54,828 nt of DNA from Candidatus Hodarchaeota archaeon (GTDB lineage: Archaea; Asgardarchaeota; Lokiarchaeia; Sigyniarchaeales; SOKP01): NCBI GenBank assembly GCA_048887145.1, contig JBHLKA010000003.1, positions 1-54,828 on the forward strand, read 5' to 3'. The stretch's first letter is position 1, and each line of letters starts with the position of its first letter. Positions 133 to 40,783 of this stretch are shown here, one piece after another. The translations under genes were made by a program, and so were the position numbers. The notes beneath the pieces were generated by a model, which was not told the DNA's origin, did no database searches, and saw only the letters and a program-made list of their open reading frames with translations.

Positions 133-1659
133 ATGGCAATACCCCTCCCTGGAACATCGGTAATTCTCGATATCGGGTCTGCCTATACCAAAATAGGCTT
201 TGCTGGCGAGCCAGGTCCGCGTTTTGTCTTTCCCACAATTACTGGAACAGAGAAATATAAAGCTGTAATGGTGGATGTAAGTGCCAGAAATATATATGTC
301 GGAAATGATGCTGCAAAGATGCGTGGAGTTTTAAAGATCAAACGCCCTATCGAAAGGGGAGCAATAATGGATTGGAATGATTTTTATGAAATTTTAAATT
401 ATTGCTTTTATTCACTTTTAAGAATCCCTGATCTTTCTCAGTATCCTGTTTTATATACGGAGCCACCATTTTTACAGAAAGAAACTAAAGAATATATTGC
501 ACGAGTATTATTTGAAACTCACAGAGTGAAAAGCCTAATAATGGTTCCTACGCCTATATTATCCATGTTTAGTGTAGGATTAACTTCAGGTTTAATCCTT
601 GAAAGTGGAGATGGTATTACTTGGATTGTTCCAATCATTAATGGCCAAATTATTGATCAATCCGTACAAAAGTTAACATTAGGAGGTACTGACGTTAATC
701 AATATCTGAAAAATTTGCTAATGAGAGAAGGTATTCATATAGAATCTAGTGCTGTTGATGAAATTATAAAAGATATGAAAGAAAAGAATTGTTATTTCGT
801 ATTGGATCCAAAAAAACCTCCAAAACAAGATGAAAGATTTAATATTGCTATGCCAGATGGTTCTACTATAAATATTCCACATTATATTTTTCATGAGGCA
901 CCTGAAGTACTATTCCAACCTAATTTAGTGGGATATCCGATAAGTAATATTCCTCAAGCTATTATTACAAGTCTACAAGGGATTGATAAATATTATTGGA
1001 GTGAATTATTATCACATATGGTTATTTCAGGTGGAAATTTTTCATACTCTGGTTTTGAAGCAAGGTTAAGAATAGAATTAACAAAGCTACTCCCTCAATT
1101 AGGAAAAATTCCTAAACCGAAAAAACAGAGCCCTAAGGCTAAGGAAAAGACGAATCTAAAGCCAATTGAAGGTTCGAAGAAAAAGAAAGATAATTGTCCT
1201 CACTGTGGAATCCTTGTAGATTTATCTGATGAAAAAGAATTGTGTCCTAATTGTGGTGGTAGAATTGCATTACCAGAGCTTTCTATTAATATAAAAAAAA
1301 CTAGTAAAAAGGCTCCCGTCATTGATGGTAAACTCTTATGTCCTCATTGTGGAAAGGAAATAACTGATATCGACTCTCTCTTTTGTCCATATTGTGGAAA
1401 AAACGTAGAATCACCCGATTTAGAAGAGATATCAAAAAAAGTTATTGATGAAGCACCTCCAGCTAAAGAGTTTGCTGGTTTTTATGATTCCTCAGAGGAA
1501 ATCCTTAGATTCTATGTTCCCGATAATCTTGAATATGCCATTTTTAGTGGAGCAACAATTTTAGGAACACTTCCCTCATTTCAAGGGTTATTTATTACCC
1601 ATGAGCAATTTCTTTCCAATAGTGATCTTTTATACAAAGATATAAGCGAAATTTTTTAG
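133..1659 (+). CDS. Actin-related protein (Asgard ARP) with inserted double zinc-ribbon domain
   Basis: Actin motifs ILDIGSAYTKIGFAG, PIERG, VLYTEPP, LESGDG, KEKNCY, PEVLFQP, VISGG and a C-terminal GATILGTLPSFQGLFIT. An insert carries CPHCG..CPNCGG and CPHCG..CPYCG. Confidence 0.93.
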   Translation: MAIPLPGTSVILDIGSAYTKIGFAGEPGPRFVFPTITGTEKYKAVMVDVSARNIYVGNDAAKMRGVLKIKRPIERGAIMDWNDFYEILNYCFYSLLRIPDLSQYPVLYTEPPFLQKETKEYIARVLFETHRVKSLIMVPTPILSMFSVGLTSGLILESGDGITWIVPIINGQIIDQSVQKLTLGGTDVNQYLKNLLMREGIHIESSAVDEIIKDMKEKNCYFVLDPKKPPKQDERFNIAMPDGSTINIPHYIFHEAPEVLFQPNLVGYPISNIPQAIITSLQGIDKYYWSELLSHMVISGGNFSYSGFEARLRIELTKLLPQLGKIPKPKKQSPKAKEKTNLKPIEGSKKKKDNCPHCGILVDLSDEKELCPNCGGRIALPELSINIKKTSKKAPVIDGKLLCPHCGKEITDIDSLFCPYCGKNVESPDLEEISKKVIDEAPPAKEFAGFYDSSEEILRFYVPDNLEYAIFSGATILGTLPSFQGLFITHEQFLSNSDLLYKDISEIF

Positions 1660-23237: not shown

Positions 23238-24887
23238 TTATTTTAATTTCCCATATAAAACTTTATTTTTATTATATTCTTTTAGAACTCTTTTTCCTTC
23301 TTTTTTTGATAATGATAAAGAGATATCACTTTTCTGACTTAATGAACCTGTAAAAATTGGTTGATTATCAGCAATAACAATGATGTTATTGCTAGCATAT
23401 TCTGGCTCAGCTTTTAGTACTATTTTTTCCCTTTCGACTTCTACATCAAGTTGGAATTTTACCTTACTTGATTTCATCTCTCTAGAGAAGCTATTAAGTT
23501 TTCTATATTTTTCTGATCTTATTGGAATAATTGGATTTACAACAATATCTTGTCCAAAGGAATACATTTCATACTCTAACTGTCTTGTTTTATAATCTCT
23601 TACTTCAACAACTGGTCTAGCAAGATCTTTATCCCTAAAGCCATGGGGTACTTTCACTGTCATTTTTATAGTTAAGACTCTTGAAATATCTCCATCTTTA
23701 ATGAAAATGATAGTATCTATTATTGAGGGGAGCATACCAAGTTCAATTCTACCGATAAATCTCTGAACTGCGTCAATTGCAGAAGATGAATGCACAACGC
23801 CTACCATACCTACTCCAGATAATCGAAAATCAGCATAAACTTGAAAGTCTTTTGTTGTTCTTACTTCATCAAATATTGTAAAATCAGGTCGAACCAATAG
23901 TAGGATATCTGCTGAATTTTCAAGACTTCCTTCAAGCTTAGTATATTGTGTGATTTCTGGTTTAACTTGTAAATCTCTCACACTTTCTAATGTTTTTACA
24001 ACCTTATTTTGGCGTAAATAGTAATTTGCTAATGCTGCTGAAAAGGTGCTCTTACCCGCTCCAGGCGGTCCTGCAACTAGAATTCCCTCTGCTTTTTCCA
24101 GACGTTTGCGGAGTCTTGAGTCGATGGTGTAATCTGATAACGTCAAATTAACGAGTGGTCGTACTGCAGTTAGTTCAACATCATTAGAAAAAGGAGGGCG
24201 AGTAATAACTATTCTAAATTCTCGTAATTGAGCTACGACGGCACCAAACTTTTCAATTTCAACGAAGGAATGAGCATCTTCCCTTACAAATTCTATAATT
24301 TCAATTGCTATTTCTTCTATTTGATTTTTAGTTATTATGTCTTCTCTTACTCTTTCTAAATACCAATTACCTGGACTACCTTTTTTCGCATATGGAGGCA
24401 ATCCTTGCTTTAAATGGACGCTCATTGTGTTTTCATCAAAAAAATCAATTAATTTGAGTGAAACTGAAGTAACTTCTGTTGGTGCTACTTTTTCCTTTAC
24501 TGACATTACTTTAATTCCTTCAAAAATACCTACATCTCCTTGAATCCTATCTGATGTAATTAAAACAGCCTCATTTTCTCGAGCACTTTCTCTAATTAAC
24601 GCATCTAATTCTCCACCAGGAGCCATTTTAATTTCTTCTCTGGTAGGTCTTTTTCCAATTATGTGTAGCTTAATTTTATTGTCATCATGATACTGTCTAA
24701 GTCTTTTAAGAACATTTAAACCCAAGAACCCAATTTCTTTTTGAATATTAGTTCTGTATTCTACTTCAGCAACAACTACGCTGGAAATGAAAATCTCTGG
24801 ATATTCACCCAATTCTCCATCTTCAATCAAATCTAAAATTAGCCCATTAAAAATAACAGACGTATCACATGCGAACTTATCTGACAT
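23238..24887 (-). CDS. PIN-domain ATPase (PINA)
   Basis: N-terminal PIN domain (DTSVI, AEVE, DALIR, LITSD); Walker A GPPGAGKST; ESVRDLQ, FDEVR, GVGMVGVVH, IELGMLP. Confidence 0.92.
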   Translation of the reverse strand: MSDKFACDTSVIFNGLILDLIEDGELGEYPEIFISSVVVAEVEYRTNIQKEIGFLGLNVLKRLRQYHDDNKIKLHIIGKRPTREEIKMAPGGELDALIRESARENEAVLITSDRIQGDVGIFEGIKVMSVKEKVAPTEVTSVSLKLIDFFDENTMSVHLKQGLPPYAKKGSPGNWYLERVREDIITKNQIEEIAIEIIEFVREDAHSFVEIEKFGAVVAQLREFRIVITRPPFSNDVELTAVRPLVNLTLSDYTIDSRLRKRLEKAEGILVAGPPGAGKSTFSAALANYYLRQNKVVKTLESVRDLQVKPEITQYTKLEGSLENSADILLLVRPDFTIFDEVRTTKDFQVYADFRLSGVGMVGVVHSSSAIDAVQRFIGRIELGMLPSIIDTIIFIKDGDISRVLTIKMTVKVPHGFRDKDLARPVVEVRDYKTRQLEYEMYSFGQDIVVNPIIPIRSEKYRKLNSFSREMKSSKVKFQLDVEVEREKIVLKAEPEYASNNIIVIADNQPIFTGSLSQKSDISLSLSKKEGKRVLKEYNKNKVLYGKLK

Positions 24888-25494
24888 TTTCTTCCTCATC
24901 AGCTTCTAATTTACTAATTATTTCAAACTTATTAACACTATAATAAATTGGTTTAGATAACCGATCAACAGTAGCAACAATTAAATCTTTACGAGAGCTC
25001 ATTGCTACTCGGGACATTTTATCCAAATCTTTTAACTCTATTGGAGATCCTTCAAAAATAGGGTAAATTAAATATTTAGCAGCATTTTTCTCAAAATCTA
25101 CCCCCCTCTTATACACACGAAAATCAAGACCATCACCATATCCAGCTCGTACAACATAACCCCTTTTACGTAAATCCATATAAATTATATATTTTTGCCA
25201 TAATCTTGGGTCATACTGAGTGAAAAATGTTAGTAAACTTTCAAAATCATATATTTCCTTGCTTTTATCATTATCTTTCCATAATAGAATCCTATTTCTT
25301 TCACATAAGAGAAGTACTTCTATTGGTTCCAAAATAAGCTTCTGTTCTCCATTATCACTCTCTTCTAGGGTACCAATATAGGAATTGCTGTAAAATTCTT
25401 CGATAGCTTTTTTATCATAGATAAAGACTTTATCTTCCTCGAGAACTGCCTCGAACTGACTTTTCTCTGCTTTTTCATTAGCTTTTTCTGTCAT
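24877..25494 (-). CDS. endA: tRNA-intron endonuclease subunit, probably the non-catalytic structural subunit
   Basis: LEPIEVL, YMDLRKRGYVVR, DFRVYKRG, RVAMSSRKDLIVA. Catalytic Tyr and His positions appear substituted. Confidence 0.85.
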   Translation of the reverse strand: MTEKANEKAEKSQFEAVLEEDKVFIYDKKAIEEFYSNSYIGTLEESDNGEQKLILEPIEVLLLCERNRILLWKDNDKSKEIYDFESLLTFFTQYDPRLWQKYIIYMDLRKRGYVVRAGYGDGLDFRVYKRGVDFEKNAAKYLIYPIFEGSPIELKDLDKMSRVAMSSRKDLIVATVDRLSKPIYYSVNKFEIISKLEADEEENVR

Positions 25495-29884: not shown

Positions 29885-30139
29885 TTAAACCCCGCCTGCC
29901 TGTGTAGCCATTACAGTTATAACGTCTTTTTTTGGATGAATGCCAATTTTCGCAAATTTTAAATCATCTGGAAGTACCTTGCCTTTAAAAATGAACTGAA
30001 TTGCTAAAATTGGGTTAAGTTTATATTCTCTTTGAACTGTCTTTTTGATGTCAGCTATGGATTGGTTTGGATCCACTTCAATCAACTTTATTGCTTGATC
30101 TGGAGGAACTCCAGTAAGTCTAAATCTATATTGAGTCAT
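29885..30139 (-). CDS. Ubiquitin-like (beta-grasp) protein, precursor ending in GG-V
   Basis: 84 aa; IEVDPNQSIADIKKTV, QFIFKGKVLPDD (cf. ubiquitin LIFAGKQLED), C-terminal TQAGGV. Confidence 0.88.
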   Translation of the reverse strand: MTQYRFRLTGVPPDQAIKLIEVDPNQSIADIKKTVQREYKLNPILAIQFIFKGKVLPDDLKFAKIGIHPKKDVITVMATQAGGV

Positions 30140-30261: not shown

Positions 30262-30462
30262 TTAAAATCTAAAAGGCTCTGGAGGAGGTCCAGGGGGTCC
30301 AGGTGGCTTAATGGGTTGAGGAAAGGGGCTTGGTTGTGGTGATGGTTTATATGGAAAACGACCTATTCTTTTTTCTAATTCTGATATGCGATTCTCTATT
30401 TTATCCAATCTTTTTTCAATTTCAATAATTCTTTCTAATAGATTTGGGTTTTCTACTAACAT
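30262..30462 (-). CDS. Small coiled-coil protein with proline-rich tail
   Basis: LLERIIEIEKRLDKIENRISELEKRI heptads, then PYKPSPQPSPFPQPIKPPGPPGPPPEPFRF. Confidence 0.75.
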   Translation of the reverse strand: MLVENPNLLERIIEIEKRLDKIENRISELEKRIGRFPYKPSPQPSPFPQPIKPPGPPGPPPEPFRF

Positions 30463-30710: not shown

Positions 30711-31817
30711 ATGGAAAGCTGGAATCTATCGAAAAAGTTAAAAAATGAACTGTTAAAAAAATCTAGCAATATTGAAGATAATAATAGGAGAATTTTATTC
30801 ATTCTTAGAAATTTAGGGCCACAAAGATTTACTAGTTTAATAAAATATTCAAATTTGAGTAGATCCACAGTTTCAAAATATCTGAATATCCATAGTAAGA
30901 AAGGAAATGTTGAACAAAAACTTATAACAGATAAGATAACAAATAAACAATACCAAGGTTACGTAATTACTGACAAAGGCATAGAAAAGCTTGGAGAAGA
31001 ACCTTTGAAACTAAAAGATGAATTATTCATAATTAATGAATTAAAAGAAAATGTTAGAAAGCTTGAAGATTTAATAGATTTTTATAAAAAAATAAACATA
31101 GAAGACCCATTTATTATACATATTGTAAGGATTATTTCTAAAATAGGAGATAATTTTTTTAAATTACAACAAGATAGAGATCTATATTTATCACTATTTT
31201 ATATTTTTTATAACTCTATTCAGGGTCAAGGAGCCTTAGCAAGAAAATATTGGCATTTTGATAAATCTAGTACTCAAAAGTTTGTTGGTTACAAATTAAA
31301 TTTAGATCAATTCTGTAATTTATATAATGTTTCAAGAGAAGCAATCAATTATTTAGCTAGAATTAAATTAATAAAAAGTGATTTCGGATTTTATTTAATT
31401 AAACGGGAGAATAATGATTTCTTTTTTCATGAGGAAGATCTAGTAGGAACAACGACTATTAGACTCATTAAAGATAGACTAATTGATGAGATAATTAATC
31501 TTCAAGAAGGGATCTATGATATGATTTATGACTTGGATATTATAGCTGAAGAAATAACAGAACAATTAAAAGAAATGGGTTTAATATGGGATGCTATTGA
31601 AGAACAATTTCAATTATTGGTTTTAAATCTAATCGTTAAGAATGCTATCGAAATGGGATTTTTAGATATAGAGAGAGAGAAATTATTGGAAGTGATTTCA
31701 CAATCACATAAATTATCCATGTCTGAAGAGGGAAAATTACTTCAACAAAAAATTGTAAGTGGTTCCAAGATTGAGTTGAATTTAAATATTCTTACTTTAT
31801 TACCGGACTCTGTTTAA
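30711..31817 (+). CDS. Winged-helix (ArsR/MarR-like) N-terminal domain protein, putative regulator
   Basis: ILFILRNLGPQRFTSL, LSRSTVSKYL, YVITDKG; large helical C-terminal region not recognised. Confidence 0.75.
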   Translation: MESWNLSKKLKNELLKKSSNIEDNNRRILFILRNLGPQRFTSLIKYSNLSRSTVSKYLNIHSKKGNVEQKLITDKITNKQYQGYVITDKGIEKLGEEPLKLKDELFIINELKENVRKLEDLIDFYKKINIEDPFIIHIVRIISKIGDNFFKLQQDRDLYLSLFYIFYNSIQGQGALARKYWHFDKSSTQKFVGYKLNLDQFCNLYNVSREAINYLARIKLIKSDFGFYLIKRENNDFFFHEEDLVGTTTIRLIKDRLIDEIINLQEGIYDMIYDLDIIAEEITEQLKEMGLIWDAIEEQFQLLVLNLIVKNAIEMGFLDIEREKLLEVISQSHKLSMSEEGKLLQQKIVSGSKIELNLNILTLLPDSV

Positions 31818-35470: not shown

Positions 35471-36205
35471 CTATTTTGAGCATATACAAGTTTCATTTTT
35501 AACTAAATCTATTTTATCAAACATGAGATTAATAAGATTAACCATAAATAACTTATTTTCTAAATTCGGTAAGCCTAATGATGTTTTAATGACCTCTAAG
35601 GCTTCTAAAGTTCCTAAAATTCCAGGGGTCACTCCAATTACTGGTAAAGGTTCTGAATCTTGATTTATAGTTTCCGGCTCATTAAAAACACACTGATAAC
35701 AAGCAGTGCGTTTTGGGTCAATTGTCATTATTTGACCAAAAAAATCTTTTATTCCAGCAATAACACATTTTAAATTATATTCAACAGCAATTTTATTAAC
35801 TAAAAACTTGGTTTTGAAATTATCGCTACAGTCAACAATAAAATCTTGATCTTTTATATACTTCTTAATAGAATTTTCATCTAAATAATCCTTAAATACA
35901 TTTATTTTAACTTCTGAATTTAAATTAGAAAGAACTTCCTTTGCAACCTGAATTTTTTCAATACCGATATGATTTTCATTATATAAAATTTGTCGTTGTA
36001 AATTAGAAATCGAAACAATATCATTATCTATGATAGTGAGTTCTCCAATCCCAGCAGCGACTAGATAGAGAGCAAATGGAGATCCTAAACCTCCTGCCCC
36101 GACTTGGAGTACTTTAATGTTCGATAATTTTTCTTGACCATCTTCTCCGATAAAAGGAGATAAAATTTGTCGTGAATATCTTTCTTTTTGATGTTTAGTT
36201 AACAA
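35471..36205 (-). CDS. HesA/MoeB/ThiF-family (E1-like) adenylyltransferase
   Basis: RYSRQ, GQEKL, VGAGGLGS, DNDIVSISNLQRQ, DCSDN, CYQC. A start at TTG 36205 behind GGTGA is preferred to GTG 36214. Confidence 0.92.
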   Translation of the reverse strand: MLTKHQKERYSRQILSPFIGEDGQEKLSNIKVLQVGAGGLGSPFALYLVAAGIGELTIIDNDIVSISNLQRQILYNENHIGIEKIQVAKEVLSNLNSEVKINVFKDYLDENSIKKYIKDQDFIVDCSDNFKTKFLVNKIAVEYNLKCVIAGIKDFFGQIMTIDPKRTACYQCVFNEPETINQDSEPLPVIGVTPGILGTLEALEVIKTSLGLPNLENKLFMVNLINLMFDKIDLVKNETCICSK

Positions 36206-36206
36206 T

Positions 36207-36581
36207 TTAATCACCCTTCGTATAATTTTGTAGATTTTTTAAACATTCTTCAATTTCAATGAAAATCAATCCTAGATCTATGTTTATATCTGCAAGTGAA
36301 ACAATAATTACTTCTTCATCAACACCAAAAATAATTAGCTGGTAATCATTGAATTCAACTGTTATATTAATTAATTTATCAAAGAAGGTTGATATGGCCG
36401 TTTCCATTGCTCCAAACATAGTTGCTGCCATAGCACCAAACTTACGCTCATCTATATTTCTTGGTAGATTTGATAGAATCGTTAGACCATTACGATTTAC
36501 TATTGCTATTCCTATAATTCCTCCTACAACTATGAGCCTATCTAATTCCTTACTAAAATGCCCTACTTTAATTGAATTCAT
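36207..36581 (-). CDS. Roadblock/LAMTOR2-domain protein
   Basis: GIIGIAIVNRNGLTILSNLP, FGAMAATMFGAME, ITVEF, DLGLIFIEI. Confidence 0.9.
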   Translation of the reverse strand: MNSIKVGHFSKELDRLIVVGGIIGIAIVNRNGLTILSNLPRNIDERKFGAMAATMFGAMETAISTFFDKLINITVEFNDYQLIIFGVDEEVIIVSLADINIDLGLIFIEIEECLKNLQNYTKGD

Positions 36582-36896: not shown

Positions 36897-37211
36897 TTAA
36901 GATGAACTTTCTTCGAACTCTTCTCTATACATCAGTTTATCTTCATCTGTGTCAGAGAAAATTAATTTTTCCCGGTCTTGACCAATAAAAATTACTGAAG
37001 CGCCTCTTATCATTACTGTTCCAAGATCTTTACTTCTTTTTCCTCCACGACCAAAATAGATTTCTTTAGCATTTTCAACAATTAAATTCATATAATTGTC
37101 AAACATTTTTAGTTTTCCTGTTAAATATGTGTTCCAAATTTTTAATTTTATGCGAACCTCTGGTTTTAAAATTGCTTTACTCAAAGTTCTATGTATTGTT
37201 TGTTGAGACAT
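36897..37211 (-). CDS. Sm-like archaeal protein (Lsm/SmAP1)
   Basis: Sm1 motif GKLKMFDNYMNLIVENAKE and Sm2 motif LGTVMIRG; the conserved archaeal Lsm-rpl37e order. Confidence 0.9.
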   Translation of the reverse strand: MSQQTIHRTLSKAILKPEVRIKLKIWNTYLTGKLKMFDNYMNLIVENAKEIYFGRGGKRSKDLGTVMIRGASVIFIGQDREKLIFSDTDEDKLMYREEFEESSS

Positions 37212-40429: not shown

Positions 40430-40783
40430 TTAGTTTGCAATCTTAACAAGAGAATTGGGGGTTAGAATCAAATATTCATCACCAATTCGTGCCATAGAAC
40501 CACCATTGTCTCTTAAAAATGATTTTAAATCCTCAATTCCTCGTTTAAGTTTTGTAACATCTACTTTTTGTAGAAGGTTTTTTACACTAATAATTAGAAT
40601 TCTACGCCCTAACAATTCTTTTTTTATATCTTCAATCTGTTCTAAGGATGAAAAATCATATTTCTTAATTAAGAAACTCTGTTTTAACGAAGGTAAATCC
40701 CTCGAAAAACCCATAGTTTCCTCAGGTGATCCTAGCAAATCTTCATCAAATCTTTTCCAAAATTTACCCAATTTATAATTCAC
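40430..40783 (-). CDS. sepF: Cell division protein SepF (archaeal type)
   Basis: Amphipathic N-terminus LGKFWKRF (true start may be TTG 40771), GRRILII, LKRGIEDLK, GGSMARIGDEYLILTP. Confidence 0.85.
   Translation of the reverse strand: MNYKLGKFWKRFDEDLLGSPEETMGFSRDLPSLKQSFLIKKYDFSSLEQIEDIKKELLGRRILIISVKNLLQKVDVTKLKRGIEDLKSFLRDNGGSMARIGDEYLILTPNSLVKIAN

Follow-up and report, generated by a model that had tools for sequence, protein, structure and literature searches.

Does the short open reading frame (ORF) at positions 29885..30139 of contig JBHLKA010000003.1, from the Candidatus Hodarchaeota assembly GCA_048887145.1, encode a new SUMO-like modifier or a ubiquitin? A first-pass annotation of this 54,828-nucleotide stretch of DNA, which is referred to here at its full length as the window, had proposed the former, i.e., a distinct modifier with a SUMO-like C-terminus, gated by a protease and possibly bearing on the origin of SUMO. 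The stretches that it quoted (FIFKGKVLPDD, DVITVMATQAGG and the single Val past the Gly-Gly) were all found in the ORF. Our analysis assigns the gene to the ubiquitin of Lokiarchaeia, as the orthologue of the published protein Lokiarch_37670 'Ub', and its discovery is on this assignment a rediscovery of something already known. The gene and the two parts of it on which the argument turns are as follows.

29885..30139, minus strand: ubiquitin gene, orthologue of Lokiarch_37670 'Ub', with an ATG start and 84 codons plus stop
29891..29896, minus strand: codons of Gly82-Gly83, the presumed conjugation end, part of an ATQAGG conserved in 80 of 80 species loci
29888..29890, minus strand: codon of Val84, the one-residue tail past the Gly-Gly, whose length was compared in the 80 loci

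The stop codon of the ORF lies at 29885-29887, and the product of 84 residues ends TQAGG-V. The 88-residue sequence of Lokiarch_37670, from Lokiarchaeum sp. GC14_75, is given in Supplementary Data 1 of an earlier study among the proteins used there (Hatano et al., 2022, Nat Commun; PMC9192718). Compared with it, the window protein is identical at 79 of the 83 residues that precede the tail, as counted by eye, and the four differences are V22L, Q26N, S27A and D59Q. The two near-identical sequences belong to the same family and have the TQAGG end in common; past the Gly-Gly, Lokiarch_37670 continues for five residues and the window protein for one (Val), and there is otherwise no difference of substance between them. 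The description of the modifier as 'distinct' could thus not be upheld, the protein being already in print as the ubiquitin of Lokiarchaeum (PMC9192718). Literature searches with TQAGG, ATQAGG and VMATQAGG returned nothing on archaea or ubiquitin, as judged by title, and those with the locus tag and an accession-like string returned no paper. In the accessible part of the same paper, the lokiarchaeotal ubiquitin is reported to have bound a UEV-domain protein (ESCRT-I) in a yeast two-hybrid assay, and the ubiquitin genes and the ESCRT genes of Lokiarchaeota are described as lying in two separate regions (PMC9192718).

The ubiquitin-like core of the protein, claimed from the first, was borne out by the Pfam ubiquitin profile (PF00240), which matched residues 17-80 with 39.5 bits against a curated cut-off of 25.4 (E 5e-10), far beyond chance. 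The AlphaFold2 model, for which 52 homologues were used, reached a mean predicted local distance difference test score (pLDDT) of 91.4 and had its strands and helices in beta-grasp order, with strands at residues 2-8, 17-22, 46-51 and 73-79, helices at 28-38 and 62-65, and disorder confined to residues 82-84. Of the 438 PDB matches that Foldseek gave for this model at E<=0.001, most of those listed were ubiquitin chains. In the HMMER alignment, Ile50, Gly53 and Lys54 of the window protein correspond to Ile44, Gly47 and Lys48 of ubiquitin, and all three are invariant in the 52-sequence alignment. The window protein and eukaryotic ubiquitin therefore have in common the PF00240 family, the beta-grasp fold (Foldseek TMq 0.74-0.77), these three residues, and a C-terminal Gly-Gly with a precursor tail. 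They differ in that identity in the structural alignment is just 20-23%, that the first hairpin of the window protein is five residues longer, that its residues before the Gly-Gly (Ala-Thr-Gln-Ala) are uncharged, unlike those of eukaryotic ubiquitin, and that the gene encodes a single unit whereas eukaryotic ubiquitin is encoded as polyubiquitin or as a ribosomal fusion.

Relative to the score of the ubiquitin profile, the SUMO-type profile Rad60-SLD (PF11976) scored low, with 19.3 bits against a cut-off of 23.8 (E 0.001). The best PDB matches of the single sequence were polyubiquitin, Get5/MDY2, RAD23 and ubiquilin, and the first chain to contain SUMO was a SUMO1 fusion (9q9e_A) matched weakly over residues 42-83 (E 0.29). 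With the family profile as query, the order was polyubiquitins, Get5/MDY2 (33.5 bits), di-ubiquitins, RAD23 (27.5 bits), ISG15 and RUB1, and no SUMO chain was present among the best 60 PDB matches. By structure, the TMq of ubiquitin chains noted above compares with 0.76 for NEDD8 and with 0.63-0.71 for the SUMO chains matched (SUMO2/3), which were 16-18% identical to the window protein. The window protein is nearer to ubiquitin than to SUMO, clearly so by sequence profile and slightly by structure.

With Smt3 and SUMO1-3 the window protein has in common the superfold and a propeptide of one to few residues. Unlike SUMO, it falls below the cut-off of the SUMO-type Pfam profile and has no flexible N-terminal arm, since in the AlphaFold2 model strand 1 already starts at residue 2, and the mean pLDDT over residues 1-10 is 94; it also comes from a class without Ulp/SENP. 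Across 161 genomes from the class, 40 of them of high quality, this protease (peptidase C48) was not found once, in a survey whose positive-control genome matched as expected, nor was it found in the source genome, an assembly of 2.96 Mb (G000) that is 82.5% complete. What speaks for a SUMO-like modifier is the weak match to 9q9e_A, the presence of SUMO2/3 among the Foldseek matches, the 19.3 bits of Rad60-SLD, and the Thr-Gln-Ala-Gly-Gly end. The tail of SUMO, uncharged or acidic with a Gln two residues ahead of the Gly-Gly, may resemble this end. Against that, the last 23 residues alone had no match in the PDB at E<=10, and the likeness, which goes back to the SUMO sequence cited in the first-pass annotation, cannot be distinguished from chance.

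Conservation of the Gly-Gly in homologues had been named from the start as a check on the gene, and the check came out in its favor. We compared 80 species-level loci taken from genome contigs (L020-L099), and in all 80 of them the ATQAGG was invariant. The tail past it varied, with no residue in 19 loci, one in 55, two in 4, three in 1 and at least five in 1; the one-residue tails were Ile (24 loci), Phe (13), Val (8) or another residue (10). A similar picture emerged from the 120 homologues listed in a database search, where 113 had an x-x-x-x-GG motif followed by no residue (26), one (54), two (8), three (1), four (5) or at least five (19). The seven others were apparently truncated or frameshifted, or ended Gly-Val. 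Distant paralogues often end exactly at the Gly-Gly, e.g., P0138, P0142, P0145, P0162 and P0197. The invariant Gly-Gly with a variable tail points to a ubiquitin-type precursor, the tail itself apparently not being under selection.

The idea of a protease-gated modifier therefore survives in one part and not in the other. The window gene does encode a precursor with Val84 past the Gly-Gly, so that this residue would have to go before any E1 could use Gly83; the masking is not a conserved gate because about a quarter of the orthologues, the 19 of 80 that end at the Gly-Gly, need no trimming. The same end of the protein affects how conjugates might be sought. Since the last Lys or Arg before the C-terminus is Lys71, trypsin would leave a 12-residue remnant (Asp72-Gly83) rather than di-Gly, and standard di-Gly proteomics would miss the conjugates.

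Across the 80 loci the ubiquitin is 90-98% identical to that of the window, as against 24-96% for the proteins of neighboring genes, of which only LSM comes close to it in conservation. The ubiquitin gene is under strong purifying selection. A word-indexed search returned 190 homologues at E<=1e-3, and the 120 listed were 72-98% identical to the window protein; where their sources named them, the names were Lokiarchaeota, Promethearchaeota or Hodarchaeota, and several were called 'ubiquitin-like protein'. An exhaustive profile search extended this to 293 proteins at E<=1e-3, including more distant paralogues. When 400 genomes of the phylum were surveyed with a relative (P0027) as the query, 136 matched, made up of 135 of the 161 genomes in the class of the window (the source genome counted) and one of the 239 genomes outside it, the latter weakly (E 6.5e-6). 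In the genus of the source genome, 33 of 41 genomes had a match. The source genome itself holds one copy: among 17,967 six-frame ORFs searched with the hidden Markov model (HMM) of the family at E<=1, the window ORF was the sole match.

Conjugation enzymes were found elsewhere in the source genome. Genome-wide, there were matches to five ThiF-family proteins (one of them an E1 of 411 residues), three E2 proteins over the cut-off and six JAB-domain proteins, and none of their genes adjoins the ubiquitin gene. Several of them lie together on another contig, which also has a RING-like gene.

25073-31615 of contig C13 (L131), run of genes on the minus strand: eukaryote-like ubiquitin operon, with a zinc-finger membrane protein, JAB, E2 and E1

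This run encodes a membrane protein of 381 residues with a C-terminal zinc finger, a JAB protein of 270 residues, an E2 of 175 residues and the E1 of 411 residues, which scored 118 bits with the Ube1 model, the highest of the E1s in the genome. A ubiquitin-like protein of 111 residues is encoded after the E1 and another of 138 residues nearby. Both have acidic N-terminal arms and, in place of a Gly-Gly end, finish with Ser-Thr-Ala-Gly, and neither was detected with the HMM built for the family of the window protein; a membrane-anchored protein of 264 residues from the same contig carries a ubiquitin-like domain at its C-terminus. The ubiquitin-like genes of C13 may represent a modifier system of their own, additional to the orphan ubiquitin. 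The remaining enzymes are dispersed, with two orphan E2-like genes (C39 and C8), five large JAB proteins (one on C18, three on C34 and one on C35), a sulfur-relay cluster of ThiF, ThiS, TusA, a ThiI-like protein and NifU on C81, and a divergent ThiF on C109.

Two archaeal systems provide comparisons. The ubiquitin of Caldiarchaeum subterraneum (PDB 6fnn), likewise an archaeal precursor, matched the fold of the window model with a TMq of 0.75 at 20% identity (6fnn_C). Its precursor is processed by Rpn11, a JAB protease, according to the available text of the study (PMC6043591), and six JAB-domain genes are present in the source genome of the window. In Caldiarchaeum, the genes for ubiquitin, E1, E2, RING and Rpn11 form one operon, whereas the ubiquitin gene of the window stands alone and the operon of its genome, on the other contig, contains other ubiquitin-like genes, unlike that of Caldiarchaeum. 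The second system, from Helarchaeia, is like the window protein Asgard and like it has extra residues past the Gly-Gly. In the portion of the preprint that is accessible, a Helarchaeial pro-ubiquitin with four residues past the Gly-Gly is described as conjugated in vitro in its trimmed form, the Helarchaeial E1, E2 and RING E3 attaching the trimmed ubiquitin to a UEV-Vps23 protein (bioRxiv 10.1101/2023.07.25.550441). The likeness to the window protein is one of description, and unlike the window gene the Helarchaeial gene is described as part of a ubiquitin/ESCRT operon.

Taken with the conserved end, we consider it likely that the window gene encodes a true ubiquitin-type modifier, trimmed of its tail, activated by an E1, transferred by an E2, attached to lysines and read by the UEV domain of ESCRT-I. 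In such a pathway, the precursor with Gly-Gly and Val84 would be translated and Val84 trimmed off, most likely by a JAB/MPN metalloprotease, by analogy with Caldiarchaeum. Gly83 would then be adenylated by a eukaryote-like E1, for which the E1 of the C13 operon is favored as the charging enzyme because it is eukaryote-like. An E2-like enzyme would take over the ubiquitin, which would become linked to lysines on its targets, whether or not a RING protein takes part, and the UEV domain of Vps23, a protein of ESCRT-I, would recognize ubiquitin in its free or attached form.

Several observations weigh against this pathway. The gene is an orphan, the 54.8-kb window containing no E1, E2, JAB or RING gene with the exception of a MoeB-like ThiF. 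The E1-E2-JAB cluster on C13 may instead serve its own Ala-Gly-ended ubiquitin-like proteins. Eight of the 41 genomes of the same genus had no match, four of them being 92-99% complete, so that the gene may not be indispensable, or the search may have missed it in those eight. We found no literature report of conjugation, activation or trimming for the protein or an orthologue. Finally, among single-domain chains of the PDB, those that the family profile matched best are ubiquitin-like domains that are not conjugated, namely Get5/MDY2 and RAD23 with the scores given above, as compared with 17.9 bits for mono-ubiquitin.

This last ranking also bears on a different function, in which the protein would be a non-covalent adaptor like Get5/MDY2 or RAD23 that binds partners such as the UEV protein and is never itself conjugated. 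Consistent with an adaptor, the sole NCBIfam match was the Rad23 model, although far under its cut-off, the one published experimental result that we found is a binding assay (in the accessible part of PMC9192718), and the conjugation enzymes do not adjoin the gene. However, the ATQAGG is exact at every one of the 80 loci and the tail past it varies freely, which is the pattern of a processed modifier, and adaptor proteins of this kind need no such end. The distant paralogues likewise end exactly at the Gly-Gly, and the residue aligned with Lys48 of ubiquitin does not vary in the 52-sequence alignment. We therefore regard an adaptor as unlikely, and the ubiquitin-type modifier remains the preferred reading.

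The ThiF gene in the window, which was not mentioned in the first-pass annotation, lies 5.3 kb from the ubiquitin gene.

35471..36214, minus strand: ThiF/MoeB-type adenylyltransferase (E1-like) of 247 residues, PF00899 with 231.8 bits

Its best NCBIfam matches were MoeB, ThiF and UbaA, all below cut-off, and the Ube1 model gave 58 bits. Such a gene would suit a sulfur carrier, or a dual-function protein like Urm1 or SAMP, that was activated by this syntenic MoeB-like ThiF. In 43 of the 80 loci the ThiF gene is found 5-10 kb from the ubiquitin gene, and in one locus (L051:798-1670) the ubiquitin gene is followed immediately by the gene of a compact E1-like protein of the ThiF family; this compact protein has no clear orthologue in the source genome of the window, where it best matched the operon E1 (32% identity), together with a 68-residue fragment at a contig end. 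Against this, the synteny with ThiF is that of a whole block of at least 20 kb, not of a gene pair, and an inversion in L038 moved the ubiquitin gene with its two upstream neighbors away from the ThiF side, while the downstream E1-like gene occurs in only that one of the 80 loci. In addition, ThiS/MoaD and Urm1 were not among the five Pfam families matched by the window protein at E<=10, and the genome already has a proper sulfur-relay cluster on C81. A role as sulfur carrier is accordingly very improbable. As for a distinct SUMO-like modifier with a dedicated protease as its gate and relevance to the origin of SUMO, it fails the tests of profile, structure and genome content, in a quarter of the orthologues there is no tail for a protease to take off, and we give it hardly any credence; the finding as first put forward matters little.

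The absence of a neighboring E2 or JAB gene, as first reported, extends to the whole window, in which none of the 53 ORFs scanned matched UQ_con or JAB. The neighbors that do accompany the ubiquitin gene, and other features of the window, are listed here.

30262..30462, minus strand: coiled-coil, proline-rich protein of 66 residues, directly upstream of the ubiquitin gene, conserved neighbor
30711..31817, plus strand: protein of 368 residues with an N-terminal winged-helix domain, divergently transcribed conserved neighbor
36207-36581, minus strand: Roadblock/LC7 protein, overlapping the ThiF gene
36897-37211, minus strand: LSM protein, typical Asgard content
40430-40783, minus strand: SepF, typical Asgard content
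133-1659, plus strand: actin-family protein fused to zinc ribbons, typical Asgard content
24877-25494, minus strand: tRNA-splicing endonuclease EndA, typical Asgard content

The 66-residue protein, for which no Pfam or NCBIfam family was found, was detected with tblastn in 52 of the 80 loci; its distance upstream from the ubiquitin gene is about 300-420 nt in most of them and about 2.4 kb in three. The 368-residue protein is encoded upstream, in the opposite orientation, in 77 of the 80 loci; it scored 22 bits with HTH_5, at the cut-off of 22, and 21.6 with HTH_45, below the cut-off of 25.5. The two upstream neighbors are real conserved partners of the ubiquitin gene.

Further observations were made on the family at large. 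The codon at the position of Met1 is ATG in 41 of the 80 loci, as it is in the window, and otherwise ATT (29), ACG (5), TTG (2), ATA (2) or GTG (1). Among 26 longer relatives scanned against Pfam at E<=1e-6, 20 had no family, one had a TIR domain, one a UQ_con fragment and four ubiquitin alone. The fused relatives include P0171, in which the ubiquitin-like domain is preceded by an N-terminus with weak likeness to E2/UEV (16.8 bits with UQ_con, below cut-off) that has no match in the source genome of the window, and also P0219, P0169 and P0179. In one fused relative an E2 fragment adjoins the ubiquitin-like segment, and another carries the TIR domain. In yet another the Gly-Gly is followed immediately by a Cys and 80 residues that look by eye like an autoprocessing (Hint-like) domain, with no Pfam match.

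Thirteen of the listed homologues are longer (93-95 residues) by about 10 highly variable residues between '...KKDVI' and 'TVMATQAGG', i.e., within the last strand. At the level of DNA, we observed an insert of 30 nt inside the codon of Thr75 in two species genomes (G213 and G181) and in nine metagenome contigs, the latter found by a pattern scan of contigs; the window gene does not have it. These 11 loci (L100:1640-1699, L101:1708-1767 and L115-L123) hold nine distinct sequences, of which three, including those of G213 and G181, contain an in-frame TAG. Both genomes (88% and 93% complete, respectively) have one ubiquitin match each.

All nine versions fit one bulge-helix-bulge (BHB) structure. 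Its outer helix joins exon to exon (GAYG with CGUS), its central helix of 4 bp pairs exon 1 (U-Y-A-U) with the 3' part of the insert, two bulges of 3 nt lie on opposite strands, and an inner hairpin with at most nine pairs closes with a 5-nt loop. In the alignment of the nine sequences, 88.9% of the cells pair, as compared with 34-54% when a shift of 1-3 columns is applied to the partners. The central helix pairs in all nine sequences (100%) and includes a compensatory switch between C-G (six sequences) and U-A (three), and five pairs of the structure show changes on both sides. Cutting of such motifs takes place after the second nucleotide of the bulge. In all nine versions, a cut inside both bulges removes exactly 30 nt and restores an ACC or ACG codon for Thr75. 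The insert agrees with the definition of a BHB motif, as cut by EndA, that is given in the available text of a recent preprint (bioRxiv 10.64898/2026.10.13.758758).

Some features of the insert are less telling. Minimum-energy folding recovered the inner hairpin but in some cases missed the central helix, with its weak A-U pairs, z-scores were modest (-1.5 to -2.1), and the six versions that have no stop codon could in principle be translated. A search for RNA sequencing runs for one of the loci (L101:1-3282) returned none. As to its spread, exact matches to the intron core in G213 and G181 were found at the ubiquitin locus alone, and matches with two mismatches numbered 7 and 1, as compared with 3 and 5 for the controls, giving no sign of spread. 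Two other stop-containing matches were considered and rejected as introns. In L113 (G123:C118) the gene ends normally, and the Ala-Thr-Gln-Ala-Gly-Gly codons are duplicated in frame a few codons past the stop in a small tandem duplication; the match in G182:C22 (L114) is a second copy, truncated at its N-terminus. Separately, a different insert of 30 nt lies between the codons of Lys70 and Lys71 in another family of the order (L112, G281:C61, at about 473-502); this single sequence has a hairpin of 9 bp with a 5-nt loop, an in-frame TAA, and flanking helices that are less regular.

A literature search for BHB introns in protein-coding genes of Asgard archaea gave no paper about protein genes, as judged by title, and the closest one deals, in its accessible part, with tRNA genes (bioRxiv 10.64898/2026.10.13.758758). 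These results suggest that in some Lokiarchaeia the sole ubiquitin gene is probably interrupted at Thr75 by a tRNA-type BHB intron, a candidate that is seemingly new and is the one part of this work deserving its own follow-up. If true, the transcript of a eukaryote-signature gene would undergo mRNA splicing in the archaea most closely related to eukaryotes, and an Asgard protein gene would join the very few whose mRNAs the tRNA-splicing enzyme cuts in archaea. If the candidate intron is spliced, the production of ubiquitin in these Asgard archaea would depend on the tRNA-splicing endonuclease and a ligase.

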